Shown here: in pieces, positions 21,754 through 63,300 of the stretch | Position numbering within the stretch: position 1 is the first letter of the stretch | Layout of the letters: each line of letters starts with the position of its first letter | IMG/VR virus record: IMGVR_UViG_2740892219_000010 | Location: 15,486-79,485 of that record | Strand: one strand, 5' to 3' | Origin: a virus | Lineage: Duplodnaviria > Heunggongvirae > Uroviricota > Caudoviricetes | DNA: 64,000 nt | The notes under the pieces: generated by a model | The model's input: the letters and a program-made list of their open reading frames with translations, nothing else | What the model was told of the DNA's origin: nothing | Databases searched by the model: none | Translations under genes and position numbers: made by a program

Positions 21754-21774
21754 ATTACAAACAATAACTGTAAT
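21754..21774. promoter_or_regulatory. Candidate operator palindrome in the immunity intergenic region
   Basis: ATTACA-N9-TGTAAT between the divergent Cro-like and repressor genes. Confidence 0.35.
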
Positions 21775-21811
21775 TACAAATTATATTTGCAATGCTCCCT
21801 ACAATTAAACC

Positions 21812-23251: not shown

Positions 23252-23572
23252 ATGGAAGCGCGCACCATCCCAGTAACACTCTTTATTCATTATGCAACTT
23301 CAACTTTCAGCCACGAAAAGCTGCTTGTTGCGACTGTTGATATGTCAAAAAATTTTCCAGACAGGTACATCCTTCTGGAAAGCCGCGAAATTGAAATTAC
23401 CGTTAACCAGCCCGAGCCAATCGACATCATCGGTTTACAGGTCGAGCAACTGCGTGAACAAAAACAGAAAACAGTCGCCGACGCCCAACAGCGTATTGCT
23501 GCTATCGATGACAAAATCCAGCAGTTACTTTGCATCGAATACACGCCAGATACCGATGAGCTCCCCTACTAA
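23252..23572 (+). CDS. Hypothetical protein, first gene of early-left operon
   Basis: 106 aa with RBS aaggag. Confidence 0.45.
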   Translation: MEARTIPVTLFIHYATSTFSHEKLLVATVDMSKNFPDRYILLESREIEITVNQPEPIDIIGLQVEQLREQKQKTVADAQQRIAAIDDKIQQLLCIEYTPDTDELPY

Positions 23573-23602
23573 AAACCACTGACCTGTAATGAGGAAAGAC
23601 CA

Positions 23603-25822: not shown

Positions 25823-26388
25823 GCACTGCTATCGCTATTGCAAAAGAATATGCCAGTCTGATTGACCTGTTAGAAACCTCCGACGAACTGACGCCAGAGA
25901 TGATCGCCGACACGCTTGAAGGTATGGAAGGAGAACTGGGAGACAAACTGGACGCCATGATGGTCATCTGCCGCAATTTACAGGGCAATGCCAATACCTG
26001 CGCTGAAGAAATGTCTCGCCTGGCTACCCGTAAGACGTCCTTTGAAGGCAAGGAAAAAGCAATTCGAAAGCATATGCTCGCCTGCCTGCAAGCTGCTGGC
26101 CTGGATAAACTGAAAACCGCAAAAAACACATTTACTGATGCACAGGGGGCTATCCGGGTAATTATTGATAACAAAGATAAGATCCCGGACGAGTATGAGG
26201 GTGTGTCACTTGTTGATGTAGAAACGGTTATTACACCAAACAAGCGAGCCATTAAAGAAGTGATTGAATCTGCGGAGGCGGTTGCCGCCGAAATACTGGC
26301 GCGTGGAGAAACACCACCAGCCGAGTTATTAAACCCGGTACCAGGCGCACATCTGGAACGCGGCGAACGGTCACTGAGGATACGCTAA
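25819..26388 (+). CDS. Hypothetical acidic protein
   Basis: 189 aa, ATGA-coupled to the 739-aa gene. Confidence 0.45.
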   Translation: MSTAIAIAKEYASLIDLLETSDELTPEMIADTLEGMEGELGDKLDAMMVICRNLQGNANTCAEEMSRLATRKTSFEGKEKAIRKHMLACLQAAGLDKLKTAKNTFTDAQGAIRVIIDNKDKIPDEYEGVSLVDVETVITPNKRAIKEVIESAEAVAAEILARGETPPAELLNPVPGAHLERGERSLRIR

Positions 26389-26570
26389 TGCTTAAACTCA
26401 CATTAAAGCGTGGTGACGCGGTTCACCTGGTACTTGCCGATGGTACCAATGGCATTATTGAAGCACGGAGCCGCTGCGAACTTGGGCTACACCTGCCAGA
26501 AAACATTAAGGTCACTCGGGAGAAATCGGCATTCCCCCCACCAGAACTGATTACGCCTAATCAGAAATAA
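26388..26570 (+). CDS. Hypothetical small protein
   Basis: 60 aa, start overlaps previous stop. Confidence 0.3.
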   Translation: MLKLTLKRGDAVHLVLADGTNGIIEARSRCELGLHLPENIKVTREKSAFPPPELITPNQK

Positions 26571-26619
26571 AAACTCACCATCGCTAGCATTGCGATTCAC
26601 CAGTAACCGGAGGATCACA

Positions 26620-26844
26620 ATGCTGCGATGGCAACCGGGAGCAACTCTGCTCTCCGCATTTGATATCAAAATTGGCCGACTGTCGGCCAGCGTCAGGAAA
26701 CAGACTTTGACCGAGTCTGATATTGCCCGTGCCTGCCATGTGGCAGATGACGCAATAAGCTACATAATGAGGAAAGACCATGAAAAGCGATCACGACATA
26801 ATCACCAGAGAAGAAATGGTCGAGCTGACGGGAAGCCCACTTAA
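26620..26844 (+). CDS. Hypothetical small protein
   Basis: ATG at 26620 with RBS ggagg (track ORF begins at an upstream TTG). Confidence 0.35.
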   Translation: MLRWQPGATLLSAFDIKIGRLSASVRKQTLTESDIARACHVADDAISYIMRKDHEKRSRHNHQRRNGRADGKPT

Positions 26845-27043
26845 ATCAAAGCAATGTGAGGCTCTTCGCCGGGCTGGAATTTTCTTCATGGAAAGGGCTG
26901 ACGGACACCCAAAAACAACCTGGGGCCATTTCATGAACCCAATAAAATTTCGCAATTTACAGGAGGTGACGACGCGAAAAGATGATGAACCTGATTTTGG
27001 AGCAATATTTAATGGCCGGAAAGAGAAAGAACCCAGCAGATAA
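26780..27043 (+). CDS. Putative excisionase-like protein
   Basis: 87 aa directly upstream of and overlapping the integrase. Confidence 0.4.
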   Translation: MKSDHDIITREEMVELTGSPLKSKQCEALRRAGIFFMERADGHPKTTWGHFMNPIKFRNLQEVTTRKDDEPDFGAIFNGRKEKEPSR

Positions 27044-28028
27044 CTGGATGCCGCCTCGTGTTTACCAGGGCAAAGCGGCCTACGAATTCAGGAATAAAGA
27101 TAACAAAGCGATACGCCTGTGCGCATTGGATGCACCACGATCAGCCGTATGGCTGGCATATGAAAAAGCGGTCGGTGACGAAAAAGAAAGAAATACTTTT
27201 CAGGCGCTCGCGGAACAATTCATGACCTCCCCTGATTTTATGGATTTGGCAGTCGAAACCAGGAAAGACTACACAAAATATTCCGGAAAAGTTCTGCCTG
27301 TCTTCGGGAAGATCGACCCGGATAAAATCAAACCTGAACATATTCGGCGCTATATGGATCAACGCGGTTTATCAAGCCGAACTCAGGCAAACAGGGAAAA
27401 AAGCTTTATGTCCCGGGTATTCCGTTGGGGTTATGAACGAGGTTATGTTCAGAGGAATCCTTGTCAGGGAGTTAAACAGTTTAAAGAGACAGCTCGCGAA
27501 CGTTATATTACGGATGAAGAATATCAGGCCGTTTATGAAGTGTCTCCTGACGTCGTTCGCGTGGCAATGGAGATTGCCTACTTATGCGTGGCCAGACAGA
27601 GTGATGTACTTTCATTGCAGAAAGACCAACTGTTCGATTCCGGGATCTACATTCGTCAGGGAAAAACCGGCGTTAAGCAAATCAAAGCCTGGTCGCCTCG
27701 TCTGCAGAAAGCGATAGCTCTGGCTCGTTCTCTGCCATTAAAAACGGGAATCAGTAGTCTGTTTGTGATTCATCAAACTACCGGTGGCAAGTACACCCGT
27801 GATGGTTTTAACTCTCGTTGGCGTGATGTCAAAGCTGCGGCACAGGAAAAATATCCTCATCTGCAAATAGACTTCACATTTCATGATCTGAAAGCAAAAG
27901 GTATCTCTGATCTGGAAGGCAGCCTGGAAGAGAAGCAAGCAATTTCCGGGCATAAGAACCCACGACAGACAGCAGCATATGACCGAAAAGTTAAAGTAGT
28001 GCCCGTAGTTGGTGGCCAGAGAAAATGA
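26982..28028 (+). CDS. int: Tyrosine integrase of the lambdoid prophage
   Basis: 348 aa tyrosine-recombinase-like C-terminal region; 3-prime end 60 bp from the att repeat. True start may be ATG at 27012. Confidence 0.8.
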   Translation: MMNLILEQYLMAGKRKNPADNWMPPRVYQGKAAYEFRNKDNKAIRLCALDAPRSAVWLAYEKAVGDEKERNTFQALAEQFMTSPDFMDLAVETRKDYTKYSGKVLPVFGKIDPDKIKPEHIRRYMDQRGLSSRTQANREKSFMSRVFRWGYERGYVQRNPCQGVKQFKETARERYITDEEYQAVYEVSPDVVRVAMEIAYLCVARQSDVLSLQKDQLFDSGIYIRQGKTGVKQIKAWSPRLQKAIALARSLPLKTGISSLFVIHQTTGGKYTRDGFNSRWRDVKAAAQEKYPHLQIDFTFHDLKAKGISDLEGSLEEKQAISGHKNPRQTAAYDRKVKVVPVVGGQRK

Positions 28029-28087
28029 ATGATGATGCGTCCAGAGAAAAATCATCTTCGGACGCATCTTCGGAAATGAGAAAGAAG

Positions 28088-28213
28088 ATACAAAAAAACC
28101 ACCCGAAGGTGGTTTCACGACACTGCTTATTGCTTTGATTTTATTCTTATCTTTCCCATGGTACCCGGAGCGGGACTTGAACCCGCACAGCGCGAACGCC
28201 GAGGGATTTTAAA
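28088..28213. repeat. att direct repeat copy 1 (126 bp): leuZ terminator plus last 55 nt of tRNA-Leu
   Basis: 125/126 identical to 62929-63054; lies between the two convergent integrase genes. Confidence 0.9.
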
Positions 28214-28319
28214 AACTATCAACCACCATTTATAAATCATAACCTTATGATTTTATTAACTTTGCAAATAGCTCTATACGATGCCATTTGAATCTATTGT
28301 CACTTTTTATCGCCACTTT

Positions 28320-29321
28320 TTACCCTCTATTGTCAAAAGGGTTCAATTCAACTGCAGCCTCTAAATGACCTGGAGCAAAATGCGCATAACGCATAGTCAT
28401 TTTTATATCGCTATGCCCCAGTATTTTTTGCAACACAAGAATATTTCCTCCCCGCATCATAAAATGACTGGCAAACGTGTGACGTAGCACATGAGTTAAT
28501 TGCCCATCAGGAAGCTCGATCTTCGCTCTCTTAATTGCAGCGTCAAAAGCCTCATAACATGGTGAAAATAACGCTCCTCGTTTTTTAGGAAGCATAGCCT
28601 GCAATTGAGGTGAAATCGGTACAGTGCGGTTCTTCTTTCCTTTAGTTTTAACAAATGTGATTCGACCGGGCAGCACTTGAGATTGCTTTAATCCTTCAGC
28701 TTCACTCCACCGAGCACCAGTCGCAAGCCCAATACGGACAACAACCCCCAAATCTTTATTCCGTGACTCATCACACGCAATCAGAAGGCGTTCAATCTCA
28801 TCTACATACAGAAACGCCAATTCCTTTTCTTCCTCACGAAACTTGCGAATGCCAGTCAGGGGGTTTTCACCAGACCACTCCCCAAGGCGCTTCAGTTCGG
28901 CAAAAACAGCATGTAGATATGACTGCTCGCGATTAACGGTTGCTTCACTAAGTTTTTTCTTCCCCTTGGGATTCCATTCTCCTGATAACCTCCTTTCCCG
29001 ATAAGTAGCAAACATATTTTTGTCAAACTGAGAAGCAAATGGATCTCCCAGCCTAGAACAAATAGACTCAAGTTTGACTTTGCGCTCTGCACCAGAGGAC
29101 AAGGTTTTACCGTACATCTCAAACCAACGAGCAACCAACTCAGAAAGACGAGGACCAGAACCATCTTGAAACTCGTCTCCAACTCTACTATTCATTAAAC
29201 GGCGCTCATAAGAGAGCGCCTCACTTTTTGTCGCAAACTGTTTACGAATACGTTTTCCCGATGCCCCGTAAGGATAACATTCGCAAAGCCATTTACCTGA
29301 TGGAATCTTACGAACCGACAT
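28320..29321 (-). CDS. int: P2-family tyrosine integrase
   Basis: 333 aa; C-terminal HxxR..Y-type catalytic region (VLRHTFASHF..MRYAHF); adjacent to att copy 1. Confidence 0.85.
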   Translation of the reverse strand: MSVRKIPSGKWLCECYPYGASGKRIRKQFATKSEALSYERRLMNSRVGDEFQDGSGPRLSELVARWFEMYGKTLSSGAERKVKLESICSRLGDPFASQFDKNMFATYRERRLSGEWNPKGKKKLSEATVNREQSYLHAVFAELKRLGEWSGENPLTGIRKFREEEKELAFLYVDEIERLLIACDESRNKDLGVVVRIGLATGARWSEAEGLKQSQVLPGRITFVKTKGKKNRTVPISPQLQAMLPKKRGALFSPCYEAFDAAIKRAKIELPDGQLTHVLRHTFASHFMMRGGNILVLQKILGHSDIKMTMRYAHFAPGHLEAAVELNPFDNRG

Positions 29322-29326
29322 TTTAG

Positions 29327-29674
29327 TTACTTATCACATAAATCAAATGCAGCCTTAGTGACATCTCCCAGATTCTTTTTTAACCCTGGGGCGGCATCAT
29401 TATCCAGCCAAAATGGATTATTGTTATCTAACGGTAACGCACCAAATGTTTTACCTTTTATTCGAGCCAAACCTGTAAGCGCATATAACTTATTATCGTC
29501 AAAATTCATCACATAAGGATTACCATCTAGACACTGTAACTGAACCTCATCAGTATTAAATGGCCATACCCCATTGAAACTCTCACGTTCAATATTTTTA
29601 AAAGGCATTGCGACGGCAGAAAAAGAAAACATAGATAAAAAAGTAACTAATAGTTGAACCTTTTTTACTTTCAT
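29327..29674 (-). CDS. Hypothetical secreted protein (cargo between int and repressor)
   Basis: 115 aa with N-terminal signal peptide; P2 has no gene here. Confidence 0.45.
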   Translation of the reverse strand: MKVKKVQLLVTFLSMFSFSAVAMPFKNIERESFNGVWPFNTDEVQLQCLDGNPYVMNFDDNKLYALTGLARIKGKTFGALPLDNNNPFWLDNDAAPGLKKNLGDVTKAAFDLCDK

Positions 29675-29703
29675 ACCATTACCTCAATTTAGCTCAAGTA
29701 AGA

Positions 29704-30354
29704 TTACAAATTAAAAAACATCCTAGAAATGGCACCACCTACCAAACCCCCTACGCAGATAAAGAATATTATTTCTTTTGGATAAAGTCGGATTAATTCT
29801 GAAGCACGAAGTCGGACTTCTGGTAAGGTCGAATTCTCTGTGTTGCTTGATACCGATTGTTGCTCTAACCACGACAATGCAGACTGCAACTGAGAACGAG
29901 TAAGATCGTTTAAACGTCCTGTACCGAAATTGATATGGCAATACCGCAGAAGTTTTTGTCGAAGTCCACAGTCTTCACTGTTACGTAGTAATAAACTTAC
30001 AAGAGCCTTACAGGCATCATGATCTTTACATCGCTCAAGCATTGCATGCAGAAAACTCTCCGCTGTTTTATATTGATTTACTGTCATATCATCAATACCA
30101 GCTACACCAATCTCCGCATGTACTTTTTGCCAAATAATAAACGCTTCAGTATTGCTAGCTTCTGCAATAGCAGCAACCAAGCTATTTAGCTCCTTACGCT
30201 GAGCCTTAAGCAAAGGGCGATCGTCATCATCATTATTCGAAGGGATTGCGATATTGACGGTATGAGAACCATCATATCGCCCTATCTGAATATTCTTTTC
30301 GTGAAAATCACGCCCAGCAACGCGATTGTTTGAACCGTTTGAGTTGACGGCCAT
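29704..30354 (-). CDS. Hypothetical protein with C-terminal TM helix (cargo)
   Basis: 216 aa; N-terminus NGSNNRVAGRDFHE echoes the C-terminus of the upstream repressor. Confidence 0.45.
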   Translation of the reverse strand: MAVNSNGSNNRVAGRDFHEKNIQIGRYDGSHTVNIAIPSNNDDDDRPLLKAQRKELNSLVAAIAEASNTEAFIIWQKVHAEIGVAGIDDMTVNQYKTAESFLHAMLERCKDHDACKALVSLLLRNSEDCGLRQKLLRYCHINFGTGRLNDLTRSQLQSALSWLEQQSVSSNTENSTLPEVRLRASELIRLYPKEIIFFICVGGLVGGAISRMFFNL

Positions 30355-30369
30355 GTCACCTCCCTACTA

Positions 30370-30774
30370 TCACCTACCCTTAGTTTCGTTATAGTCACGC
30401 CCAGCGATACGGTTATTACCGCCAGAAATATTTAACTCACGTCCTGATGGCTGAGTTTCCTTTTCACTGGCCGCACCTTTTAAAGCCCCGATCACCGCGT
30501 TTTTCACATCTAACGAAGCTGCTCGAAAGCGAGTAATCAACTCCTGCTCATCATCGTTATAAGTTTCAGGTGAGTGAATTCCCAACACAACATACTGAAC
30601 ATCAAGGCCAAAACGAGACAGCGCTGCCAAATACGCAGCATCAGGAAAGCTATCTCCTTTCTCATATCTAAGCTGAGTTAGCTTTTTGACTCCACCAATG
30701 TCGCTCATAGCAACTTGACTAAGTCCCAATCTTTCCCTTTCCTCACGCAACCTCTGACCAATATCATTTTTCAT
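30370..30774 (-). CDS. Immunity repressor, HTH XRE family (P2 C position)
   Basis: 134 aa; N-terminal HTH (LGLSQVAMSDIGGVKKLTQLRYEKG); divergent from cox-like operon. Confidence 0.6.
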   Translation of the reverse strand: MKNDIGQRLREERERLGLSQVAMSDIGGVKKLTQLRYEKGDSFPDAAYLAALSRFGLDVQYVVLGIHSPETYNDDEQELITRFRAASLDVKNAVIGALKGAASEKETQPSGRELNISGGNNRIAGRDYNETKGR

Positions 30775-30783
30775 ACAAAAACC

Positions 30784-30807
30784 TTGACAGGTATCTTTTT
30801 TGATACC
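30784..30807 (+). promoter_or_regulatory. Candidate early promoter with embedded operator palindrome
   Basis: TTGACA at 30784-30789 followed by GGTATC-N6-GATACC, in the repressor/cox intergenic region. Confidence 0.35.
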
Positions 30808-30849
30808 AAAATGATTTCACGAGCTATTAGATGATCACAATATATCACT

Positions 30850-31056
30850 ATGAAACAAGTTCTTCACGATACCAGATCACGCATTCCGCGTAACACCGCC
30901 ACAGGTCCAAGACTGGCACTTCGGATGTCCCTCGAGGAGCGAGCCGTCATTGATGAAATGGCAGCTAAAGAACAACGCTCATCCTCTAACATGGCGCGCA
31001 TGATCTTCCTTCGCGGCCTAGAGCTAACCCAGAAAGAACAAAACAAATCTTCCTGA
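30850..31056 (+). CDS. Small putative DNA-binding early protein
   Basis: 68 aa, first gene of the early-right operon. Confidence 0.35.
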   Translation: MKQVLHDTRSRIPRNTATGPRLALRMSLEERAVIDEMAAKEQRSSSNMARMIFLRGLELTQKEQNKSS

Positions 31057-31072
31057 TCAGGAGGCTAATGGG

Positions 31073-31276
31073 ATGTCAGGTATAACCATCAATATCAATG
31101 TGAATGCCCCCTATGTATCCCTGCAGAAATATGCAGAGATAACAGGTATCCCTCTTAATACATGCAAAAAGATGTTGGCTGACGGTCGAATTATTATCCG
31201 ACCCAAACGCGCCAAAATGGAAAAGCCTGAAGTAAACCTTGTGGCGATGTTAAAAGACGCTTTGGCTAACAGCTAA
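31073..31276 (+). CDS. cox: Cox-like excisionase / early regulator
   Basis: 67 aa; APYVSLQKYAEITGIPLNTCKKMLADGRIII parallels recalled P2 Cox. Confidence 0.5.
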   Translation: MSGITININVNAPYVSLQKYAEITGIPLNTCKKMLADGRIIIRPKRAKMEKPEVNLVAMLKDALANS

Positions 31277-31297
31277 AACAATGAACAGAGCATCATC

Positions 31298-31648
31298 ATG
31301 AAAAAAAACACTAATATTCCATACTCCAAATTTCGTAATGGCGTAGAACGCCACGCTAACCGTTTCGCTATCAGAACATCACGTAGCAACACTCGCTACA
31401 GCCTGAGCGAAACACACGCTACACCTGATGGCCATCCCGTAAAACAAATTGGTGAACACACCTGGCTGATTGAGAAAGCTGGAATCGTGGTTCACAGATG
31501 CCAACGCAACCCATTTACCGGAAACCGCATTTTTGCTCTGAGCAACGGCGACAATCAGTTTGGACAGGATTTCACGTTGTACGAAGCTCTGCGCACGGTT
31601 GATCGTCTGCTACGCGGACAGAATTTCATTAAACAGGCTGATTTATAA
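31298..31648 (+). CDS. Hypothetical early protein
   Basis: 116 aa ORF in early operon. Confidence 0.4.
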   Translation: MKKNTNIPYSKFRNGVERHANRFAIRTSRSNTRYSLSETHATPDGHPVKQIGEHTWLIEKAGIVVHRCQRNPFTGNRIFALSNGDNQFGQDFTLYEALRTVDRLLRGQNFIKQADL

Positions 31649-31658
31649 CAGGTGCTTT

Positions 31659-31937
31659 ATGACCAAAGACCATGCTCAGGGTGTATTTATCCGCTTTATT
31701 GATTTTCGCGGTGAGCTGTTGTTGCGCGCATCAGCTATTGATGGAGTGGTTCCGGTAGATAAAAGCACGGCCACTTACATTTATCTGAACGGCACACGCC
31801 TGACCGTAGAGATTCCATATCAACCCGTATGCGAAATTATTAGCGAAGCTGAAAAAGCACGTCAGGTTAATGGCGATAAACCCTATCTCGAAATTATCTG
31901 CATGGATTCAGAAGCTGAAATTCAGAAGGCAGATTAA
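31659..31937 (+). CDS. Hypothetical early protein
   Basis: ATG at 31659 (MTKDHAQG), in frame with track ORF 31560. Confidence 0.4.
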   Translation: MTKDHAQGVFIRFIDFRGELLLRASAIDGVVPVDKSTATYIYLNGTRLTVEIPYQPVCEIISEAEKARQVNGDKPYLEIICMDSEAEIQKAD

Positions 31938-31948
31938 AGGGCGTTGCG

Positions 31949-32191
31949 ATGGATAAAGAATATAAAACTCTCGTCAATAAAGCACTTGAGCGCTTTCATT
32001 TTCGCTTAAACGCATCAGGCGCTCATGCTGAACGCGCAGCCCGAGAGTCATTGACCAGAGCTATCAAGAGTATATACGACACGGCTTTTTACGTTGACGA
32101 CCCGGACGCGCTCGACGAGCTTTCCGTACTCGTCTGCGCCGCAGAAAACGGGGACCATATTGAGCCATATAAACTGGGAAATATTGCATGA
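31949..32191 (+). CDS. Hypothetical early protein
   Basis: 80 aa ORF. Confidence 0.4.
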   Translation: MDKEYKTLVNKALERFHFRLNASGAHAERAARESLTRAIKSIYDTAFYVDDPDALDELSVLVCAAENGDHIEPYKLGNIA

Positions 32192-32387
32192 GTATATTTA
32201 TCTCATGGCTTGTTCTGATTATTTCGGTGGCCTGCGCTATTGGGATTATGCGAATTATTAATTCAGTAAAAAAGATTGAACGCTTTTTCACTGAAGAATA
32301 ACCGCGCAAATAAGACTCCAGGTTAAATAAGAAAATGTGAAAACAATCCGCATTCGCGGAGGTATTCGCACACGCCAAGGAGGCGTA

Positions 32388-32591
32388 ATGGCAATTAAGC
32401 ATTTTCCTGTCGTTCGTTTCACCTCCAGAGGACGTGAATACGAAGTTGACGAACGCCTGATTACCACAATCGACAAACACCGTTCAGAAAAGGATGCACA
32501 TCACATCTATCTCACTGACGGTACTTACTTCTGCGCCACCAACGTGGTGCAGGTGAATCTTATCAGACAGGTACAGGAGTCACGCAGATGA
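32388..32591 (+). CDS. Hypothetical early protein
   Basis: ATG at 32388 preceded by RBS aaggagg; overlaps next gene start. Confidence 0.45.
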   Translation: MAIKHFPVVRFTSRGREYEVDERLITTIDKHRSEKDAHHIYLTDGTYFCATNVVQVNLIRQVQESRR

Positions 32592-32833
32592 CCATTCTGG
32601 ACTACATCGCTGCCAATCCGGGTTGTAGCGGTGGAGAAATCGCCGCAGCACTGAATACACCAACCACAACCATTAATGCGGAGCTACGCCGTCTCTGGCG
32701 CAGCGGTTCAGTCATAAGAAAAGAGCGCAAAACAGGCGGTCGCTTTTCTTATCAGGTAAACCCGATGCCGTTTGGGTGTAGCAACCCACTAACCCAGATG
32801 TTCAACCAGCTACTGAGGGAAATCAGAGCATGA
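32588..32833 (+). CDS. Small winged-helix-like protein
   Basis: 81 aa ORF. Confidence 0.4.
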   Translation: MTILDYIAANPGCSGGEIAAALNTPTTTINAELRRLWRSGSVIRKERKTGGRFSYQVNPMPFGCSNPLTQMFNQLLREIRA

Positions 32834-32974
32834 GCACCTCCTGCTGCCGGAAACCACGTCGGGCTTCAGCAGCTCATCCGGCAGCAAAACAAACTCCGTT
32901 AATTCCTGTTCCGGGCCTTTCCTGCACCTTGCGGCGGGAGGCCTTCGCACATCTGCAACAAGAGGATTGCCGCA

Positions 32975-33340
32975 ATGATTCTCGCCGAAGACTTTTTTGA
33001 TTACCTGCTGAAAACCGAGCGCGATTTTGGTATTCGCGTTCTCGACCGCTATGCAATGTATCTGAAATCACTGCCGGAACAGCAGCTCCCGGACGGCCAG
33101 ATTGTTATTGACGGGCGCTACATGGTTGGTAGCTGCCAGGATGATTACACACTTTCCCGCATCGAAAGCGGCACGCCTTCCGTACTGGGTATTTACCAGC
33201 GAACTTCATTTCTGATTGCTGATGTAATTGCTGACAGCATTCGCATAACACACCGTTATGCCAGCACAGAGAGCACCATGCAGGAAATCCAGCGGCTGGC
33301 TACCGTCTGCCACAATGCACTGAGCGGCAAGGCGGAGTAG
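32975..33340 (+). CDS. Hypothetical early protein
   Basis: 121 aa immediately upstream of gene A. Confidence 0.4.
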   Translation: MILAEDFFDYLLKTERDFGIRVLDRYAMYLKSLPEQQLPDGQIVIDGRYMVGSCQDDYTLSRIESGTPSVLGIYQRTSFLIADVIADSIRITHRYASTESTMQEIQRLATVCHNALSGKAE

Positions 33341-33345
33341 TCAGC

Positions 33346-36168
33346 GTGGCAACGGAGTACATCAGAAACTGGCAACAACCACGCCATGCAGTCGGTCGCG
33401 AGGGAACGGGGGAGCCTGTCCGCCCCTCCCTTCTTTCTTCCTGGCTGGATGCCTACCGGGCAGAGAACGAGCGCCGCCAGGAAATGGCTGATGCGGCGTT
33501 CTCCGCCACGCCGCTGGGCAATTTGATTAATAAAAACCTGGACGCACAGGAAAAACAGGACAAAGCCATCACACTGGCAAGAGAAGCCAGAAAACAGGCG
33601 TGTGGCGCGGTGGATGAAGCAATTGCCGCACTGCGCCTGCTGCCGTCCTATCTGCGAGATCCGCTTATCCGCCATCTCTCTTTCCTGCGCAAAAAACAGG
33701 AATCCGATCGTCAGAAAGGCAAAAAGAGCTGGCAGGCTGAACGCTACGCGCGCGGAACCCTGCGCAAAATATTCGAACGTCTGGAGCGCACCGACAGACG
33801 CTGGCTGACACCGGGTTATCGCTCCCTTGCCGGGCGTGAACGCCTGGATGATTTACTTTACCTGCCGCAGCTCAACAAACACCAGATACAGACGCTGGCC
33901 GTCATGACAGCGGCGATGTTCAGCAGCACCTTCGAAAAACTCTGCGATGACTTTGGCGCGACCGATGGCGAGCTGACCATGGATATAACGCTGAAGGCGT
34001 ATCAGATGCTGGCCCGCATGGCGTTACATCTGCACACAGTGCCGCCGCATTATGACGCACTGACAACAGACAAAGACCGGAAGAACGAACCGGACACGGA
34101 GCTGCTGCCGGGTGCAATCCTCCGCCTGACCTGTGCGGACTGGTGGAAACGCAAATTGTGGCTTTTACGTTGCGAATGGAGAGAGGAACAACTCCGCGCT
34201 GCCTGTCTGGTTTCCAGAAAAACATCCCCCTATCTGAGTCAGGACGCATTAAGTGAATTTCGCGCACAGCGCGAGAAAACACGCGATTTCCTGAAAAGTT
34301 TCATGCTGGAAAATGAAGACGGGTTCACGATTGATCTTGAGACGGTGTATTACGCGGGAGTAAGTAACCCGGTCCACCGTAAGGCAGAAATGATGGCCAC
34401 CATGAAGGGGCTGGAACTTCTGGCCGAAGCCCGTGGCGACAAAGCGGTATTTCTGACCGTTACCTGCCCGTCAAAATATCACGCAACAACGGAGAACGGT
34501 CATCCGAATCCCAAATGGAACGGCGCCACCATGCGCGATTCCAGCGATTACCTGGTTAACACTTTTTTTAAGGCAGTCCGCAAAAAACTGAACCGCGACG
34601 ACCTGCGCTGGTATGGTATCCGCACGGTGGAGCCACACCATGACGGCACCGTGCACTGGCACATGATGGTCTTTGCACATCCTGAAGAAATCGACAGCAT
34701 CGTGGACATCACCCGTGATATTGCCATTCGCGAAGACCGCCACGAGCTGGGCAATGACATAACTCCGCGCTTTAAGGCAGAGTACGTCGACGGTTCGAAA
34801 GGTACGCCGACCAGCTACATCGCCACCTACATCGGAAAGAACCTGGACAGCCGCGCCGTGGATGGCATTGACCCGAAAACAGGCAAGCCACGCGTTGATC
34901 ACGAAACCGGAAAATCAATGACCGAGAGCGTGGAACGCGCCATCGGCTGGGCGCGCCTTCACCGCGTCCGCCAGTTCCAGTTCTTTGGTATCCCCTCCCG
35001 TCAGGTATGGCGTGAACTCCGCCGCCTTGCCAGTCAGATGGCCCGCAACCCGGAAGGTCCACAACGTCTGGAAAATGACGCAATGGATGCGGTACTCGCT
35101 GCCGCTGATGCCGGGTGTTTTGCCACCTACATTGAGAAACAGGGGGGCGTACTTGTTCCACGCAAGGATTACCTGATTCGCACCGCCTACGACCTCGCAG
35201 AAGAGCTGAACGATTACGGCGAGCAAAGCGTACAGATTTACGGGATCTGGTCGCCACAAATCGGGGAATCTTCCCGCGTGTGCACGCACCCGGATAACTG
35301 GAAGCTGGTAAGACGTAAACCGGAAGCGGAAGACAGCGCCCGCGAAAATGGTTTTGACCTTCAGGGCGGCCCTGCCGCCCCTTGGACTCGTGGCAATAAC
35401 TGTCCCCGTGTACAGGAAACGGACAACAACGGGACAGAACAGCCGGAAGAACGGCCAGCACCGTGGCCGCAGCTTCCTGACGGCGTTGAAGTGAATGAAT
35501 GGATGCGCTCACTGAAACGGCACGAACGCCGGGCGCTGATGCGTTCGCTGCGTGACAAACAGGCAAAAAACAGCAGTGATGAAATGCAGAACTGGACACA
35601 GAGCCGCAAACAGCCGCGGCCTTTGCCTGATAACCACGAGTTACTCGCTAAAGAATGGCGGGAGTCTGCCGAATCTCTCGGCCTGCATATCGGTAAACAA
35701 CAGATGCTGCACCTGTTACGGGGCGGCAGTCTGTACGTTGACGGCAGCATCATTGCGCCGCAGGGATATGAAATTGTACGTAAACCGGATACCCGACCGG
35801 ACAGCCGAATCACGCAGCTCTGGCAGCGCCTGAGCCGTAATCACAGCGTAAGCAGCACGGAGATCCGCCATAACCCGGTTTCCAGCTATCTGAAACAGCT
35901 CGGTGCATCAGACCCAGAAGCCGCCGCACGCCTGGCATCCACACTTCAGCAGGACCAGAACACCATGAAAACCCCCGTTACCGTGCTTTCTGACATGCTG
36001 CGCGCCATCCGTGACGCAGAGCACGCACAGAGAATCAGTGAAACCACTGAACGCGCCCACCGCAAAGCAGACCTGCTGCGGGGTGGCCTGACCCGTGGGA
36101 ACAAAAAACAGACAGAAACGGGATTCACAAATCCCGTAAATGAGCAAAAAACGCGCCGCGAAATATGA
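33346..36168 (+). CDS. A: Replication initiation protein, P2 gpA family (HUH rolling-circle initiator)
   Basis: 940 aa; HDGTVHWHMMVF motif typical of gpA-like HUH endonucleases; GTG start with RBS. Confidence 0.8.
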   Translation: MATEYIRNWQQPRHAVGREGTGEPVRPSLLSSWLDAYRAENERRQEMADAAFSATPLGNLINKNLDAQEKQDKAITLAREARKQACGAVDEAIAALRLLPSYLRDPLIRHLSFLRKKQESDRQKGKKSWQAERYARGTLRKIFERLERTDRRWLTPGYRSLAGRERLDDLLYLPQLNKHQIQTLAVMTAAMFSSTFEKLCDDFGATDGELTMDITLKAYQMLARMALHLHTVPPHYDALTTDKDRKNEPDTELLPGAILRLTCADWWKRKLWLLRCEWREEQLRAACLVSRKTSPYLSQDALSEFRAQREKTRDFLKSFMLENEDGFTIDLETVYYAGVSNPVHRKAEMMATMKGLELLAEARGDKAVFLTVTCPSKYHATTENGHPNPKWNGATMRDSSDYLVNTFFKAVRKKLNRDDLRWYGIRTVEPHHDGTVHWHMMVFAHPEEIDSIVDITRDIAIREDRHELGNDITPRFKAEYVDGSKGTPTSYIATYIGKNLDSRAVDGIDPKTGKPRVDHETGKSMTESVERAIGWARLHRVRQFQFFGIPSRQVWRELRRLASQMARNPEGPQRLENDAMDAVLAAADAGCFATYIEKQGGVLVPRKDYLIRTAYDLAEELNDYGEQSVQIYGIWSPQIGESSRVCTHPDNWKLVRRKPEAEDSARENGFDLQGGPAAPWTRGNNCPRVQETDNNGTEQPEERPAPWPQLPDGVEVNEWMRSLKRHERRALMRSLRDKQAKNSSDEMQNWTQSRKQPRPLPDNHELLAKEWRESAESLGLHIGKQQMLHLLRGGSLYVDGSIIAPQGYEIVRKPDTRPDSRITQLWQRLSRNHSVSSTEIRHNPVSSYLKQLGASDPEAAARLASTLQQDQNTMKTPVTVLSDMLRAIRDAEHAQRISETTERAHRKADLLRGGLTRGNKKQTETGFTNPVNEQKTRREI

Positions 36169-36213
36169 AGCGCGCACAAAACAGGCAAAAGCGGGATTTC
36201 AGAATCCCGTAAA
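36119..36213. promoter_or_regulatory. Pair of 18-bp palindromes flanking the gene A stop (candidate operator or parC-like site)
   Basis: cgggattcacaaatcccg-taaa (36119-36140) and cgggatttcagaatcccg-taaa (36192-36213), about 73 bp apart. Confidence 0.45.
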
Positions 36214-36244
36214 CGATTAATTAATCAACATAAGGAAAATCGAC

Positions 36245-37204
36245 ATGAAAATTTGCATCGACGACGGCTCCACCAACATCAAGCTGGCATGGACTGAGAA
36301 CGGCGAACGCCGCAACGCCATCAGCCCGAACAGCTTCAAGTCGGAATGGTCTGCGCCGTTCGGTGGCTCGCAGCCTGCGAACTACCTGCTTGATGGCGTG
36401 CGCTATGGTTTTGATCCGGTCAGCGATCGCTTTGTCCAGACGACCGACACGCAATACCAGTACAGCGATGTGAATGTAATCGCCATTCACCACGCACTGG
36501 TCAAATCAGGCATCACACCACAGGAAGTGGATGTGGTTGTCACCCTGCCACTGAGCGAATATTTCGACACAAACGCACAGCCGGACATGGCCAACATCAA
36601 CCGCAAAAAAGCGAACGTCATGCGCCCGGTGGAGTACCAGAACGGTGAGGCATTCACTATCCGTAACGTGCGGGTTATGCCTGAATCCATTCCGGCTGGC
36701 TTTAAGGCACTGGCTGACATGAGTCCGTTTGAATCCCTGCTGATTGTGGATTTGGGCGGAACCACGCTGGATGTGGCAAAGGTTCAGGGGCAACTGGCAG
36801 GCATCAGCCAGGTGTTTTGCGATCCACACGTAGGCGTTTCCCTGATGGCTGATGCCGTGCTGTCGGTGATGGCCACTAACGGTATGCGTACCAGTCACCA
36901 CATCGCCAATACCATTATTGAGCACCGTCACGATGAAGCCTGGCTACGCCAGCACATTCACAATGACGCGCATTACAACAGCCTGATGGCGGTTATTCGT
37001 GAAAAGGAGGAGACACTGAAACAACGCGTGATCCGCGCACTCGCGGGCTTTTCGGGTTACGGGCGGGTGCTGGTTGTCGGTGGAGGAGCGGAGATTGTGG
37101 CACCCGCAGTCCGTGAAGTCTATGGAGTCAATGCGAATTTCATCACAGACGGGGTGCCACAGTTTGCTCTGGTTAACGGTCTGTACGCTATGGATAAGGA
37201 GTAA
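36245..37204 (+). CDS. parM: Actin-like ATPase, ParM/StbA family
   Basis: 319 aa; IDDGSTNIKL, YSDVNV, VDLGGTTLDV, VVGGGAEI and FALVNGLY align with recalled plasmid R1 ParM. Confidence 0.8.
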   Translation: MKICIDDGSTNIKLAWTENGERRNAISPNSFKSEWSAPFGGSQPANYLLDGVRYGFDPVSDRFVQTTDTQYQYSDVNVIAIHHALVKSGITPQEVDVVVTLPLSEYFDTNAQPDMANINRKKANVMRPVEYQNGEAFTIRNVRVMPESIPAGFKALADMSPFESLLIVDLGGTTLDVAKVQGQLAGISQVFCDPHVGVSLMADAVLSVMATNGMRTSHHIANTIIEHRHDEAWLRQHIHNDAHYNSLMAVIREKEETLKQRVIRALAGFSGYGRVLVVGGGAEIVAPAVREVYGVNANFITDGVPQFALVNGLYAMDKE

Positions 37205-37210
37205 CCCTCC

Positions 37211-37522
37211 ATGGCGACATTAACCAGAAGAATAAGTTTCTATCTGAAGCCAGCCGCCGTCAAGAACGAAGGCGAAGCATGCGCCTAGCTGGACAGCCTT
37301 ACACCAGAAGCCCGCAAAAGCGGCCAGCGCGTGGCTTTTCTGGCCGGGCTGGCACTTCTGAAGATGAATCCGGCAGAGGCTTACCGACTGGCTGCATGGG
37401 CTGATGATGAAGCGTTATCAGTGACACAAACCAGGACAGAATCCCCCGCGTCACAGCCAGTATCAACCGCACAGATAACCAGTCAGATAGCAGGGAATAT
37501 CCGGGCATTATTTCCTGAATGA
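37211..37522 (+). pseudogene. parR: ParR-like gene interrupted by an in-frame amber codon
   Basis: Frame from ATG 37211 (MATLTRRISFYLKP...) hits TAG at 37286-37288 and continues in frame (LDSLTPEARK..AFLAGLALL..IRALFPE); outline resembles recalled R1 ParR. Confidence 0.5.
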
Positions 37523-37582
37523 CGAATTTGACGGCTTTTAATTTTATCGGGGTGCACTGTCGCCCCGCACGAGGAAAACACG

Positions 37583-38107
37583 ATGAAAAAATACGAATAC
37601 ATGCTAATGAAAGAAGCACTGCGGGCTGGTCTGGCTCCCTGTCCTGTATCCGTAGAAGCTGTTGTTGGGAACACGATTTTCCGAACGCTGCGAAATCGCG
37701 TATCCGTGAAGATGATTCACCAACCACCCAAATCTACCAGCATGATCTATCTGCCGCTGCCCGAGGCTATCAAACTTATGCGTTCGCTGAAATTTGCGAT
37801 TTGGATGCAGACACAACTCAACAAAGCGGTGCAAAACACCTTCGTCAAGAAACTGATGCCGGAGCTTGCTGCCAGACGTGCAAAATGTACCAGACCCGCA
37901 CTTCAATTTGATCTGTCATTGATTCAACAAGCTACGGAGGCAGAACTGTACCGCCTGTCACCTCTCCGCGATGCTCACACGGAAGCCTCAGAAATGTTCC
38001 GGCTCATGTTTCAATTTAATTTTGCCGTTCGACGCACACGCGTTCAGGTCAATCGCATGATGCAGGCGCAGGAAGAGCTGGCGCAACACAAAGGAGACAA
38101 CCAGTGA
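37583..38107 (+). CDS. Hypothetical protein (hotspot cargo)
   Basis: 174 aa with RBS gaggaaa; no recognised motif. Confidence 0.5.
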   Translation: MKKYEYMLMKEALRAGLAPCPVSVEAVVGNTIFRTLRNRVSVKMIHQPPKSTSMIYLPLPEAIKLMRSLKFAIWMQTQLNKAVQNTFVKKLMPELAARRAKCTRPALQFDLSLIQQATEAELYRLSPLRDAHTEASEMFRLMFQFNFAVRRTRVQVNRMMQAQEELAQHKGDNQ

Positions 38108-38643
38108 GCAAGATTGACTATCAGGCACTACAAATGGCAGCAGAACGGGCAATTCCGGCAATGGAACGCCTGTTAATATTGCCAGTTGATGATGATTTGT
38201 TAAGCGAACAGGAACTTAAAGATTGCGGTGTGGATATTGACGCGATCAACACCTTCAGACTTCTGGCTGGACCGGAAGACATGCTGGCACTGCTGGATGA
38301 ACTGGAAACAGCAAAAAAGCGCATCGCTGAACTGGAAAAAATCGCAACTGACCATGCACTTAAATTCCAGAAAGCACAGGACGCATTAAAGTATGCCGCT
38401 TTGCTGCATAGCCGAACGGCGCAACAAACCAATAATTTTGCAGTATTGCTTTCGGACATAAGCGAATATTTCATTAATAACGTATTTCAGCCCTTGCGAT
38501 ACGAGCGAGACGTTGAAAGAGCCATCATAAAGGCTGGCGGAAAAGCATTGTGGCAGGAGAAGCACGAGGAAAGAACGCATCAGCTAAGTGATGTAAATAG
38601 TGGATGGTTATGCCCACTGACAGAAGGTAAAAAGAACACCTAA
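38104..38643 (+). CDS. Hypothetical protein (hotspot cargo)
   Basis: 179 aa; GTG start overlapping previous stop, RBS aaggag; followed by a 9-bp-stem hairpin at 38657-38682. Confidence 0.5.
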   Translation: MSKIDYQALQMAAERAIPAMERLLILPVDDDLLSEQELKDCGVDIDAINTFRLLAGPEDMLALLDELETAKKRIAELEKIATDHALKFQKAQDALKYAALLHSRTAQQTNNFAVLLSDISEYFINNVFQPLRYERDVERAIIKAGGKALWQEKHEERTHQLSDVNSGWLCPLTEGKKNT

Positions 38644-39133
38644 TTTCCTCTCAAACCAGGGCGATAATCGCGCATCGCCCTGCTGCACAATAGTGCACAA
38701 ATTTGCACAATTTTTTTGAACGACTTTTTGCCCTTCCGGCCCGCGTGGCGGCTGGATCCGTCAAGGATCCGTGCGTGCACAAAAAAACGCGTTTTTTCTG
38801 CGCGCAGGTGACGGGGGAACAGCCCGCGTTTCAGGGGGTAAATAGCATCCCCTGAACGATGTCGCAGAGACACAACAGAATGGCCGTATTTCTCACGCTG
38901 AGCGTGAAAAATACGTGAGGGATTCTGATTTGATGGGGTGAAAGGTAAGGCCGTCAAAATCGCACTGAGGCGGCGAGAACATGCAGTCAACGCGGTGGGA
39001 TTGAGTAAGAGTCTGACCGTCGATGGTGGCGATAAACTGGAAGGCGTCGTGAAATTATCTGACTGATACAGGAGCTGGAGAGTCGGGGCATAAATTTTTA
39101 TGCCCCGGCGAAGCAGCAGACAAGCGAAGCGCG

Positions 39134-40180
39134 TCAGGATGTGGGCTGGGTGTCTAACAGTGCGTAAGGGTTAAAGCGGATCACCTCTTCGCCAAGCCAG
39201 TCATTGATGTGCTTCATGGCCTCCATGACGGGCATCAGCTCGTTAATTGCGTAAACCCGCGCGGCCTTCTCCACATCACCAAACGCACTTTTTTCACCCG
39301 GCATCGCCCCCATCAGTTGCGGCGGAACGCGGTGCGCAGCCAGCACATCATCACGGGATGCCGCCTTAACATTCATGAACTCATCCTTTGCGGTGATCTG
39401 CTGGAACGGCAAAATTTGCACCCCCTCTTTGCCCCCGTTGGGCGCATGAATGAGCACGTTTTTAAACGCACCACCACCACGCGCACCCTGTAGCGTTTCT
39501 TTCAGGGAGTCCATGCTTTCGCGGTTTACCTGCGCTGCACCGATGTAGATGATGCACCCGGCGTGGGATCCATTGTCGTAATACAGTTTTCTGAACATGT
39601 CCGCCGAATGAGACAGGCTGGCCGAGAGTAATGCGCCGAGATATTCCGGCATGCCGTAGATTTCCTGGTTAATGTCAGGATTCATCAGGTGGCACACTTT
39701 GCCAGGGCGAAACTGAAACGCGTCCTTACCATCCTGCACATACCACCATGATTCAAGATCGCTTCCGCGTCGCATGTATTTCGCCAGGGCGTGCCGTAAT
39801 TTAAGCGGTTCGCCGAGCATATTGCTTCGAAGCTCAAGAAATGCGTTACCGAACACAAACCAGTCCAGCGCCAGCGCCGAGAAATCCTGCCGGGAAAGCA
39901 GCGGGTGCGGAATATAGCAACCGAGCAATACATTGCGCTTAAAGTAAAGCGCAGACTGATGCCAGGACGTTTGCCGGGCGGATCTTGCCAGACCGTACCA
40001 GTCCACCGGGGTTTCATACCACCGCCCGTTATCAGCACAGTACATATTGTCCAGCAGGTCATGCCCGGTCAGGCGATAAGGACCATCAAATGTGAATGCA
40101 CTGAGCGATGATTCTTTCCTGAGCGCATCAGCGAGATCAATGCGTGAACTCATGCGCACTTTTTTATTTTTTCTGCTCAT
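39134..40180 (-). CDS. Q: Portal protein, P2 gpQ-like
   Basis: 348 aa, P2-like size and position, divergent from O. Confidence 0.8.
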   Translation of the reverse strand: MSRKNKKVRMSSRIDLADALRKESSLSAFTFDGPYRLTGHDLLDNMYCADNGRWYETPVDWYGLARSARQTSWHQSALYFKRNVLLGCYIPHPLLSRQDFSALALDWFVFGNAFLELRSNMLGEPLKLRHALAKYMRRGSDLESWWYVQDGKDAFQFRPGKVCHLMNPDINQEIYGMPEYLGALLSASLSHSADMFRKLYYDNGSHAGCIIYIGAAQVNRESMDSLKETLQGARGGGAFKNVLIHAPNGGKEGVQILPFQQITAKDEFMNVKAASRDDVLAAHRVPPQLMGAMPGEKSAFGDVEKAARVYAINELMPVMEAMKHINDWLGEEVIRFNPYALLDTQPTS

Positions 40181-41931
40181 CAGAACTCCATAACCGTGAA
40201 ACGCTCGTTTTCTCCTTCGCCGCCAATCGGTTCGTTAATGACAGCAAGCATGGTTGCCCACGCAAGGTCGCCGTGGCTGATCCCCCTCGCGCGGTCCGTT
40301 TCGTAAGTGATAAAGCCGCCCGGTGTTTTCACCTTACGCACGGCGTTAAAGGCCGCGACCAGCTCGCGTTCGGCGCGATCGTATTCCCACCGGCCGGCAC
40401 GCATTATTTGCAGCATTTTCAGTACCAGCGACCGTTTTGATGACAGCGTGAAGGTGTACGGAATAGCTGCAGGGAAAAACCGTTTCACTATCTGATAAAC
40501 AGCCTCCCCATTCCCGCCCGTCACATCAATGCCGATGTGTTCCACGTTGTAGCGACACGTGAACTCTTCAATGACTCTGGCCTGTTCTTCAAACTCCAGC
40601 CCCTGAACGCGTCGCGTCTCCACCGTTCGAAAACGGCCACCAGGAACAGCCGGAGGAACCACCACGGACACAGCGCCGCTGTCGCCGTTGCCACTGCTGC
40701 CGTTTGCGTCATACCCAATCCATACCGGACGATTCCCCATCGGGCGGGGAGCAAAAGGTTTCCAGTCTTTCCAGTCGTCGTATCCGTCAACACCGCAGCC
40801 AATCAGGATATTCAGGTTAAATGCCGATTCCCCTTCGCGGACAAACTCACACATATAGAGATTGAGGAACTCGTCTTCGGTGTTTTCATCACGAATTTCG
40901 TCGATATCGGTGTGTTTCCAGCCGTGATTGACCACATCTTCCAGCGTGACAATTTGCCGCCACGTCCGGTCAGGGCAGATAAGCCCGTTATGCAGCGTTT
41001 TCCAGTCCACAGAAAAACGCTGGCGTTTATGCGAGGCCTTTTTCTCGTTCCAGCGGTCGCCGTTCCAGTAGGCGTATGCCTCGTGCGTTTCGGTGGATGG
41101 CGTGGAGAAGTAGGTGCGCCGCAGTCCGCTGAGGGTTGCCATAGCGCCAGCCACCTTACGCAGTTCAGCAAAGCGACTGACCCAGAAAAATTCATCAAAA
41201 TAAAAATTGCCCGTATAGGACTGTGCCGACGCAGCAGAAGTGCCGAGAAAATGCAGCTCTGCGCCGTTGGAGAGGATGATTTTATCGCCCCCTTTCAGCT
41301 CCACATCAACTTCAGCCGCGGCCTTCTGAATAATGCTTTTAAACTGGAACGCCTGACGACGCGACGCAGACAAAAAAATCTGGTTACGCTGGTAAGGTTG
41401 CGCCACATCGTCACGCAGCGCCATCAGCAGAGCTTCCTGTGCAAAATACCAGGTCGCCCCAATCTGTCGGGATTTCAGGATCATCCTGTTACGTATCCCG
41501 GCTTCCCTGCAAAGGGTCAGGGAGTCAAACCAGCCCCGCTGATGCCACTCCAGCCTGCTGATGATTTTTTCCCGCAGTGCGGCAATCTGTTCCGGCGTGA
41601 AATGATTTTTGAGTTTTTTCGCCCGGCCTTTCTTTCCTGCGGCCATCACATCCGGCTGGCCATCATGCAGCTTTTTAAGCTGCCGGGTCAGCAGGTCTAT
41701 TTCCTTAAAGTCACCGCCTGTTTTATTCTGTTTTTCAGTAAGCTGGATGAGGCGCGCATCGATGGACTGCGTGACACGCTGCACGGGTGGCGTTTCATCC
41801 CACTGGTCACGTTTTTTCCACGCATAAATCGTGTTCGGGTTTATTCCCATCAGACGTGATATTTCTGCGGGCGGATAACCCTGCCAGTAAAGTTGCCGCG
41901 CACGCTGGCGCACAAAAGCGTCCTGAATCAT
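40180..41931 (-). CDS. P: Terminase large (ATPase) subunit, P2 gpP-like
   Basis: 583 aa, upstream of and coupled to the portal gene. Confidence 0.8.
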   Translation of the reverse strand: MIQDAFVRQRARQLYWQGYPPAEISRLMGINPNTIYAWKKRDQWDETPPVQRVTQSIDARLIQLTEKQNKTGGDFKEIDLLTRQLKKLHDGQPDVMAAGKKGRAKKLKNHFTPEQIAALREKIISRLEWHQRGWFDSLTLCREAGIRNRMILKSRQIGATWYFAQEALLMALRDDVAQPYQRNQIFLSASRRQAFQFKSIIQKAAAEVDVELKGGDKIILSNGAELHFLGTSAASAQSYTGNFYFDEFFWVSRFAELRKVAGAMATLSGLRRTYFSTPSTETHEAYAYWNGDRWNEKKASHKRQRFSVDWKTLHNGLICPDRTWRQIVTLEDVVNHGWKHTDIDEIRDENTEDEFLNLYMCEFVREGESAFNLNILIGCGVDGYDDWKDWKPFAPRPMGNRPVWIGYDANGSSGNGDSGAVSVVVPPAVPGGRFRTVETRRVQGLEFEEQARVIEEFTCRYNVEHIGIDVTGGNGEAVYQIVKRFFPAAIPYTFTLSSKRSLVLKMLQIMRAGRWEYDRAERELVAAFNAVRKVKTPGGFITYETDRARGISHGDLAWATMLAVINEPIGGEGENERFTVMEF

Positions 41932-63224: not shown

Positions 63225-63300
<76 letters not shown>

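Follow-up and report, generated by a model that had tools for sequence, protein, structure and literature searches.

An R1-type ParMRC partition cassette, consisting of a candidate parC site, the actin-like ATPase gene parM and the adaptor gene parR, lies directly behind replication gene A in a P2-family prophage, and sequence comparison across related prophages indicates that it is part of the conserved backbone of the P88-like (Xuanwuvirus) phages and not variable cargo. The prophage is contained in a stretch of 64,000 nucleotides from the IMG/VR virus record IMGVR_UViG_2740892219_000010 (Caudoviricetes; positions 15,486 to 79,485 of that record), referred to here as the window, whose own numbering is used for all coordinates. 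The cassette would function to move or segregate the excised or infecting circular phage genome, with a parC-parM-parR backbone followed by a separate cargo slot, a reading that is favoured here with modest confidence, a little better than even.

The arrangement is already catalogued and known in kind, as a putative plasmid partitioning system has been reported at the A-to-Q locus in about one quarter of the P2-like phages of Escherichia coli (Rousset 2022, PMC9122126). RefSeq labels the products in question 'plasmid segregation protein ParM', 'plasmid partitioning/stability family protein' and ead/Ea22-like protein. The additions made here are small and comprise the boundaries of the cassette, a candidate parC, the domain pattern of ParR and a natural parR-null allele. 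The window itself is ordinary, with a known and annotated module, one broken gene and two small accessory genes that resemble no defence system. Given the prevalence of about one quarter and the purifying selection on parM, the role of an actin-type segregation machine in an integrating phage is a testable question, and it is made easier to test by a cassette bounded at approximately 36103-37522, a candidate minimal centromere and a parR-null allele beside near-identical intact sisters.

ParM and the conserved cassette behind gene A

The 319-aa product of parM had been called a ParM/StbA homologue in an earlier sequence-only reading of the window, and the full-length alignment bears this out. 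Residues 2-316 align with ParM of plasmid R1 (PDB 1mwk) at an expectation value (E) of 1.9e-92 and with roughly 50% identity as judged by eye from the alignment, and the protein spans the Pfam StbA_N (3.8e-82) and ParM C-terminal (9.9e-67) domains end to end. The phosphate-1, phosphate-2, catalytic-Glu and adenosine motifs are identical to those of R1 ParM, including the signatures DDGSTNIK, MPESIPAG, DLGGTTLD and GGGAE, which identifies the protein as the ParM component of a ParMRC system.

For the conservation of the cassette, 86 loci were compared, 80 of them from IMG/VR and the others from reference phages and genomes. The parM gene follows gene A in all 86 as part of a collinear cassette, with parM 97-99% identical and a protein identity of 95-99%; it is intact in all but one of them, and the ratio of nonsynonymous to synonymous substitution rates (dN/dS) is 0.063 over 70 unique alleles. 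In a survey of 50,697 phage records, R1-type ParM is confined to 14 P88-like records, in each of which ParM and ParR stand together behind gene A, and to the plasmid prophage D6 (47% identical). A partition-like actin module had been considered unexpected in a P2-like prophage, and its presence at every one of the 86 loci makes it a regular feature of the P88 lineage instead.

The lineage assignment derives from megablast, which places the region in the P88 lineage (genus Xuanwuvirus, Peduoviridae) with matches that include P88, Shae_phiSM and P884B11 at 92-95% identity across the conserved parts; the portal protein is 99.7% identical to that of P88. The cassette and its downstream cargo occupy the gpA-gpQ slot next to cos, which corresponds to the old/tin hotspot of P2; cos itself falls within the A-to-Q interval of P2-like phages (Rousset 2022, PMC9122126). 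The interval had been described as the P2 tin/old site of variable cargo, which holds for its position, while variability begins only at the parR stop codon: the parC-parM-parR unit is invariant in its presence and order, and the hotspot-type turnover is confined to 37523-38683. The distance from parR to Q ranges from 524 to 4170 bp over 63 loci, the slot contains 143 clusters of open reading frames (ORFs) and its cargo varies from 0 to approximately 3.7 kb among relatives, with matches to the AbiLi/AbiLii, IetA, PDC-M04A and RmrA models of PADLOC.

The slots of four relatives (L074, L075, L081 and L085) illustrate the turnover of defence genes directly after parR. The largest cargo, of about 4.2 kb and found among these four, encodes an IetA-like AAA ATPase and a 734-aa S8 peptidase, and other slots hold an AbiL-like pair, a DUF3800-type PDC-M04A gene, or an HTH-M78 peptidase (RmrA-like) with a downstream gene. 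What looks by eye like a Fic/Phd-like pair is also present among these slots. One further P88-like segment, which matches the window at 95% in ParM and at 99.6% in the portal, is found on a contig deposited as 'Vagococcus sp. WN89Y' (NZ_JBQPOM010000071.1, L121); its occurrence in a Gram-positive Vagococcus is probably due to contamination or mis-binned enterobacterial DNA.

Table 1. Features of the prophage and its A-to-Q interval, in window coordinates
Feature	Position	Strand	Remarks
Integrase	28320-29321		left end of prophage
Replication gene A, 940 aa	33346-36168	+	Pfam Phage_GPA 1.2e-129
Candidate parC/operator, two 42-nt direct repeats	36102-36143, 36175-36216
18-nt palindrome CGGGATT-N4-AATCCCG, one per repeat	36119-36136, 36192-36209		73 nt apart
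parM, R1-type actin-like ATPase, 319 aa	36245-37204	+	intact
parR pseudogene, ribbon-helix-helix adaptor, Plasmid_stab_B family	37211-37522	+	amber codon at 37286-37288
Variable cargo slot of the lineage	37523-38683		homology breaks at parR stop and resumes at 38684
174-aa orphan gene	37583-38107	+
179-aa Ead/Ea22-like gene	38104-38643	+	GTG start; overlaps stop of 174-aa gene by 4 nt
9-bp G+C-rich hairpin closing the cargo	38657-38682	+	no T-run
Conserved cos-proximal block	38684-39133		aligned with P88, phiSM and E. coli 2015C-3163
Portal gene Q, right flank	39134-40180	-	Pfam Phage_portal 4.5e-18

A recent parR amber allele and a candidate parC

The gene behind parM had been read as a ParR-like frame, and it is indeed a ParR homologue, although the frame is interrupted by a TAG at codon 26, a position at which E. 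coli 2015C-3163, P88 and Shae_phiSM all read TGG. With Trp26 restored, the 103-aa protein gives full-length matches to Pfam Plasmid_stab_B (PF10784, 1.6e-24) and to phrog_2515 'partition protein' (1.1e-55); a PDB sequence search with the repaired protein returned zero matches. The amber codon is not a sequencing error, because the same TAG is present in two independent assemblies, the Logan assembly of ERR14096836 (L089) and GCA_001514865.1 (L092), both identical to the window across 5.3 kb. Two sister prophages (L088 and L090) carry TGG and differ from the window at 2 of 2400 nt, and since the amber codon is one of just two differences from these intact sisters, the mutation is a recent and isolated event. 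Leaving aside copies truncated by a contig end, 82 of 84 parR genes are intact, and nonsense codons are present only in the window and in L076, in which parM is broken as well.

The amber codon is predicted to remove the DNA-binding ribbon-helix-helix part of ParR, and for this reason the window's copy of the cassette is most likely inactive, with ParM intact; the intact adjoining ParR gene that marks a ParMRC system is lacking in the window. The broken parR, together with the loss of both genes in L076, could be taken to mean that the whole block is a decaying relic without current function in the lineage. Such decay is very improbable as an account of the lineage, given parM intact at 85 of 86 loci, the 82 intact parR copies, the parM dN/dS of 0.063 over its 70 unique alleles and an amber codon accompanied by a single other difference from the intact sisters.

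The N-terminus of ParR (TRRISFYLKP...) is invariant, the linker is hypervariable and the C-terminal motif NI(R/Q)xLFPE is again conserved, which would fit, given what is known of R1 ParR, a ParM-binding tail. The dN/dS of parR is 0.26 for the whole gene, falling to 0.17 in the N-terminal part and rising to 0.45 in the linker. Two allele groups of ParR, approximately 51% identical to each other, occur among the loci L008-L087 (e.g., L025, L016 and L064 versus L020). Both have the first 16 residues and the C-terminal NIxxLFPE in common, adjoin the same palindromes and are accompanied by ParM proteins at least 97% identical, and their divergence is located almost wholly in the region from helix 2 to the linker. 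Co-variation of ParR with the palindromes was sought, and the comparison has no discriminating power, the N-terminal residues and the palindromes being the same in both groups.

These allele groups bear on the suggestion, made in the sequence-only reading, that the cassette is a repurposed cytoskeletal defence or exclusion module; such a module could act against competing phages or plasmids, for example by centromere incompatibility or filament-based exclusion. Two groups of ParR at about 51% identity could hint at diversifying pressure, and the cassette is located at a known defence hotspot. Both groups nevertheless keep the N-terminal 16 residues and the palindromes, so that no change of DNA specificity is apparent, and the cassette stays unchanged beside a slot in which true defence systems come and go, with parM under strong purifying selection. 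Searches of PADLOC-DB v2 at E up to 1 gave no match for ParM, repaired ParR or the 174-aa and 179-aa proteins, and the cassette is absent from the systems tested or validated by Rousset 2022 (PMC9122126). A defence or exclusion role is accordingly held to be highly unlikely.

The 142-bp region upstream of parM contains the two direct repeats, each with one palindrome, and the palindrome has just these two matches within the 64-kb window. Of 80 related loci, 77 preserve the 73-nt spacing, and the palindrome pair also accompanies parM in L005, a locus with different upstream genes, namely a gene A that is 31% identical and an extra 151-aa ORF, in which both palindromes are wholly intergenic. The repeats are therefore put forward as a candidate parC to which ParR would bind. 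When 596 Gb of genome sequence were scanned, the palindrome yielded 63 hits, approximately the number expected by chance, of which three adjoin parM, all in P88-like prophages; the other hits are chance-level single occurrences, and the scan, which was meant to find bona fide plasmid occurrences, does not extend the argument for parC.

L005 also informs the left boundary of the cassette, as its homology to the window starts abruptly at approximately 36103 and covers both repeats, and among relatives the right edge of homology is the parR stop codon. From these two edges, the mobile unit extends over approximately 36103-37522 (1.42 kb) and includes the parC-like site, parM and parR. The left repeat of the cassette also supplies the final ~22 codons of gene A (36103-36168; product of 940 aa, ending in NKKQTETGFTNPVNEQKTRREI before the stop codon), and the same sequence is non-coding in L005. 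Gene A of the P88-type phages thus seems to have been extended into the left repeat of an acquired cassette.

The cassette shares with the ParMRC systems of R1 and of the IncL/M plasmid pCTX-M3 the order parC (in the phage, the candidate site), parM, parR, a full-length ParM and a ParR that belongs to PF10784. ParR of pCTX-M3 ends in a closely similar N(V/I)xxLFP(D/E) motif, and a 30-nt direct repeat upstream of its parM is present in two copies (73% identical) that are also 73 nt apart. The centromere-like sequences differ in kind, with arrays of direct iterons of about 10-11 bp in pCTX-M3 and D6 and two 18-bp palindromes in the P88-type cassette. Other differences from R1-type plasmid systems are the location on an integrating P2-family phage, the overlap of the left repeat with the end of gene A, a core without a recognisable promoter and, in the window, a parR pseudogene. 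P88 carries the same element behind gene A, with ParM 97% and ParR 93% identical to the window, and differs by having a ClpX-zinc-finger-type gene as cargo and by the absence of the amber codon. D6 similarly encodes an R1-type ParM followed by a small partition protein (StbA-type), and differs in being a P1-like extrachromosomal prophage, for which a partition role is expected, with direct iterons upstream and a different ParR C-terminus.

Proposed role on the circular phage genome

In relatives with an intact cassette, the phage genome would become a free circle after infection or excision, and ParR dimers would bind to the two palindromes. The conserved C-terminal tail of ParR (NIRALFPE) could then capture the ends of ParM filaments, and ATP-driven polymerisation of ParM would push or position the phage circles, to the benefit of replication, packaging or inheritance of the not-yet-integrated genome. 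Expression of the cassette at this stage would be in line with its surroundings. A crude scan predicted no sigma-70-like promoter on the plus strand of 35900-39200, and the parC core, checked by eye and with the scanner, contains no convincing sigma-70 promoter. Terminator-like sites on the plus strand are found only after the cargo, and none that is convincing lies between gene A and the cassette. As neither a promoter nor a convincing plus-strand terminator separates the cassette from gene A, it is probably transcribed together with the early lytic operon and not expressed in the lysogen, and with such read-through it would act when the genome is a free circle.

Several points weigh against this proposal. 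The left palindrome is located within gene A, such that part of its conservation may be coding, and both palindromes resemble weak terminator hairpins when the minus strand is scored. Only two sites are present, against ten iterons in R1. As the promoter scan was crude, there may be an internal promoter and thus expression in the lysogen. Rolling-circle replication by a P2-type gpA is not known to need a partition system. Literature searches for experiments on ParM in P2-like or P88 phages turned up two passing mentions and no experiment on function in a P2-like phage. Finally, a circular 'plasmid' of 34.5 kb fits stable episomal maintenance at least as well as it fits a transient role.

The record in question, NZ_CP148288.1 from E. 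coli (L004, 1-34461), was deposited as a circular 'plasmid' of 34,461 bp and represents a complete P88-like genome with int, cox, A, parM, parR, Q and the capsid, tail and lysis genes. Its ends adjoin the integrase gene, at the would-be attP junction; the molecule may have arisen by induction or may represent a genuine episome.

A phage-plasmid lifestyle, in which ParMRC keeps P88-like phages as stable low-copy circular prophages that alternate with the integrated state, is an alternative with which this record, closed at the int end, is compatible. The only other phage with an R1-type ParM among the 50,697 records, D6, is moreover a known plasmid prophage. Spontaneous induction can, however, yield a circular contig of phage size, and of approximately 1,400 plasmid records that match the cassette, seven reach at least 90% identity, most of which are very large replicons that likely contain integrated prophages or are mis-assigned. 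The integrase is kept in all members examined, and the window copy is chromosomally integrated. Replication by a gpA-type rolling circle is also not known as that of a typical stable plasmid replicon. The lifestyle has been proposed in the literature, with P88 described as a possible phage-plasmid with episomal and integrated states (Pfeifer 2021, PMC7969092) and in connection with the A-to-Q partition genes (Rousset 2022, PMC9122126), and it is regarded here as possible and rather improbable. The sequence-only reading had considered a relic of such a lifestyle, in which the phage-plasmid idea coincides with this published speculation and the relic is disfavoured by a parM gene intact at 85 of 86 loci.

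For the reading preferred here, segregation or movement of the free phage circle, the closest functional precedent, beside R1 ParMRC on plasmids, comes from the CGP3 prophage of Corynebacterium glutamicum. AlpA and AlpC are products of early genes, and circular phage DNA requires them for efficient replication; the adaptor recognises sites (alpS) that precede the alpAC operon, and the system was shown to work on the excised phage circle soon after induction (Donovan et al. 2015, PMC4446434). The two systems have in common an integrated prophage with an actin-like ATPase and a DNA-binding adaptor. They differ in that AlpC is a distant actin-like protein whereas the P88-type protein is a close R1-type ParM, in gene order and host phylum, and in that function is demonstrated for AlpAC and inferred for the P88-type cassette. 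The generic ALP_N domain scores 25.9 bits on ParM, just under the cut-off, and the likeness to AlpAC is architectural. By analogy, it is tentatively suggested that the P88-like ParMRC is a DNA-positioning machine, a Gram-negative R1-type counterpart of AlpAC and not a plasmid-maintenance relic, with the palindromes as a minimal parC, a specific version that remains doubtful. If it is true, the machine would separate or position the monomeric circles generated by gpA for replication and packaging, or would secure inheritance before integration, and the amber allele and its TGG sister prophages would constitute a natural isogenic pair.

Cargo genes, slot end and flanking sequences

The cargo in the window consists of two overlapping genes for proteins of 174 and 179 aa, as had been noted from the sequence. 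The 174-aa protein has zero matches in Pfam, PHROGs, NCBIfam and PADLOC, and a profile search of the PDB likewise returned none. Its family comprises eight clusters among 5.8 billion proteins in a word-indexed search and three representatives among 1.84 billion in an exhaustive profile search; both searches recovered just close relatives of E. coli/Shigella type, from which no remote homology could be built. A dN/dS of 0.21-0.29 against homologues that are 52-74% identical indicates that the ORF is a real coding gene. The AlphaFold2 model is poor, with a mean predicted local distance difference test score (pLDDT) of 59, and a Foldseek search with it against viral structures gave nothing below E=0.45.

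The 179-aa protein had been described as having no recognisable motif, and it is in fact a member of the Ead/Ea22 family, with residues 2-121 matching PF13935 (Ead_Ea22; gathering score 27 bits) at 2.9e-21 and 76.9 bits. The family is large and mosaic, and over 2,800 related clusters carry the name ead/Ea22-like. It had been asked at the outset whether the downstream genes are simply known accessory genes, which applies to this common prophage family and not to the 174-aa orphan. The protein resembles lambda Ea22 in its N-terminal and coiled-coil region and differs from it by another C-terminal module and by the location in a P2-type hotspot. This module is poorly predicted in the AlphaFold2 model (pLDDT 67), and a Foldseek search of the PDB returned nothing below E=1, its hits being generic coiled-coil or BAR-like noise. 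A search of PDB sequences at E up to 1 found no match, the solved (nuclear magnetic resonance) structure of the lambda Ea22 C-terminal domain included. Over some 220 nt (38089-38308), from the final part of the 174-aa gene to ~200 nt into the 179-aa gene, the sequence is ~86% identical to DNA of many Stx-converting and other lambdoid phages, annotated as Ea22 in one record. This likeness suggests that P2-type and lambdoid phages have recombined at the slot.

The two genes are independent modules and not an obligate pair, because each is found without the other: the 174-aa gene lacks an Ea22-like partner in 3 of 10 loci, and the Ea22-like gene lacks a 174-aa partner in 11 of 18. A homologue of the 174-aa protein is also encoded directly behind gene A in a phage without ParMR. 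In L005 the pair is located among genes for a single-stranded DNA-binding protein (SSB) and a ClpX-zinc-finger protein, a setting of early-accessory type. Lambda Ea22 is an early gene of the exo-xis region that favours lysogeny (PMC7093339, PMC10834534). On the grounds of this separability, the L005 setting and the early, lysogeny-favouring nature of lambda Ea22, the two genes are interpreted, with low confidence, as lambdoid-type early accessory genes rather than as defence genes.

A new two-gene anti-phage system in the hotspot would offer another explanation of the pair and is considered unlikely. It would fit with the location in the same variable slot in which relatives carry AbiL, IetAS and similar systems, with the 4-nt overlap, suggestive of translational coupling, and with the tiny, unannotated 174-aa family. 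The separability of the genes (3 of 10 and 11 of 18 loci) argues against it, as do the 174-aa homologue behind gene A in a phage without ParMR, the L005 copies among SSB and ClpX-zinc-finger genes, and the role of Ea22 family members in lambdoid phages as early genes favouring lysogeny (PMC7093339, PMC10834534). Neither protein matches PADLOC, no promoter-like site is predicted, and both structure models are uninformative.

The block was also said to end in a strong hairpin, which exists and falls just outside the end assigned to it, at 38643. The 91-nt stretch around the hairpin has a folding energy of -22.1 kcal/mol (z=-3.1), and the hairpin is confined to relatives that share the same cargo. 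The conserved cos-proximal block that follows opens with a terminator-like stem and a run of seven T (38693-38708 and following).

The integrated prophage as a whole spans 28.3-61.4 kb of the window and is flanked by DNA approximately 99% identical to E. coli chromosomes. Its gene order is integrase, a repressor-like helix-turn-helix (HTH) gene, early genes and gene A, then portal Q, terminase and capsid genes. No Rfam family matched within 28000-41000 at E up to 0.1. Between the integrase and the repressor-like HTH gene, a 216-aa ORF (29704-30354, minus strand) has no significant Pfam match, and its position would allow expression in the lysogen. Directly upstream of the P2-like prophage, the segment at 20000-28300 is other prophage-type DNA, whose counterparts in matching E. 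coli genomes are annotated as integrase, siphovirus Gp157 family protein and YdaT toxin; the two elements appear to be arranged in tandem. Past the right end of the prophage, a cluster of tRNA-Leu(taa), tRNA-Cys(gca) and tRNA-Gly(gcc) genes is located at 63000-63300 on the minus strand.

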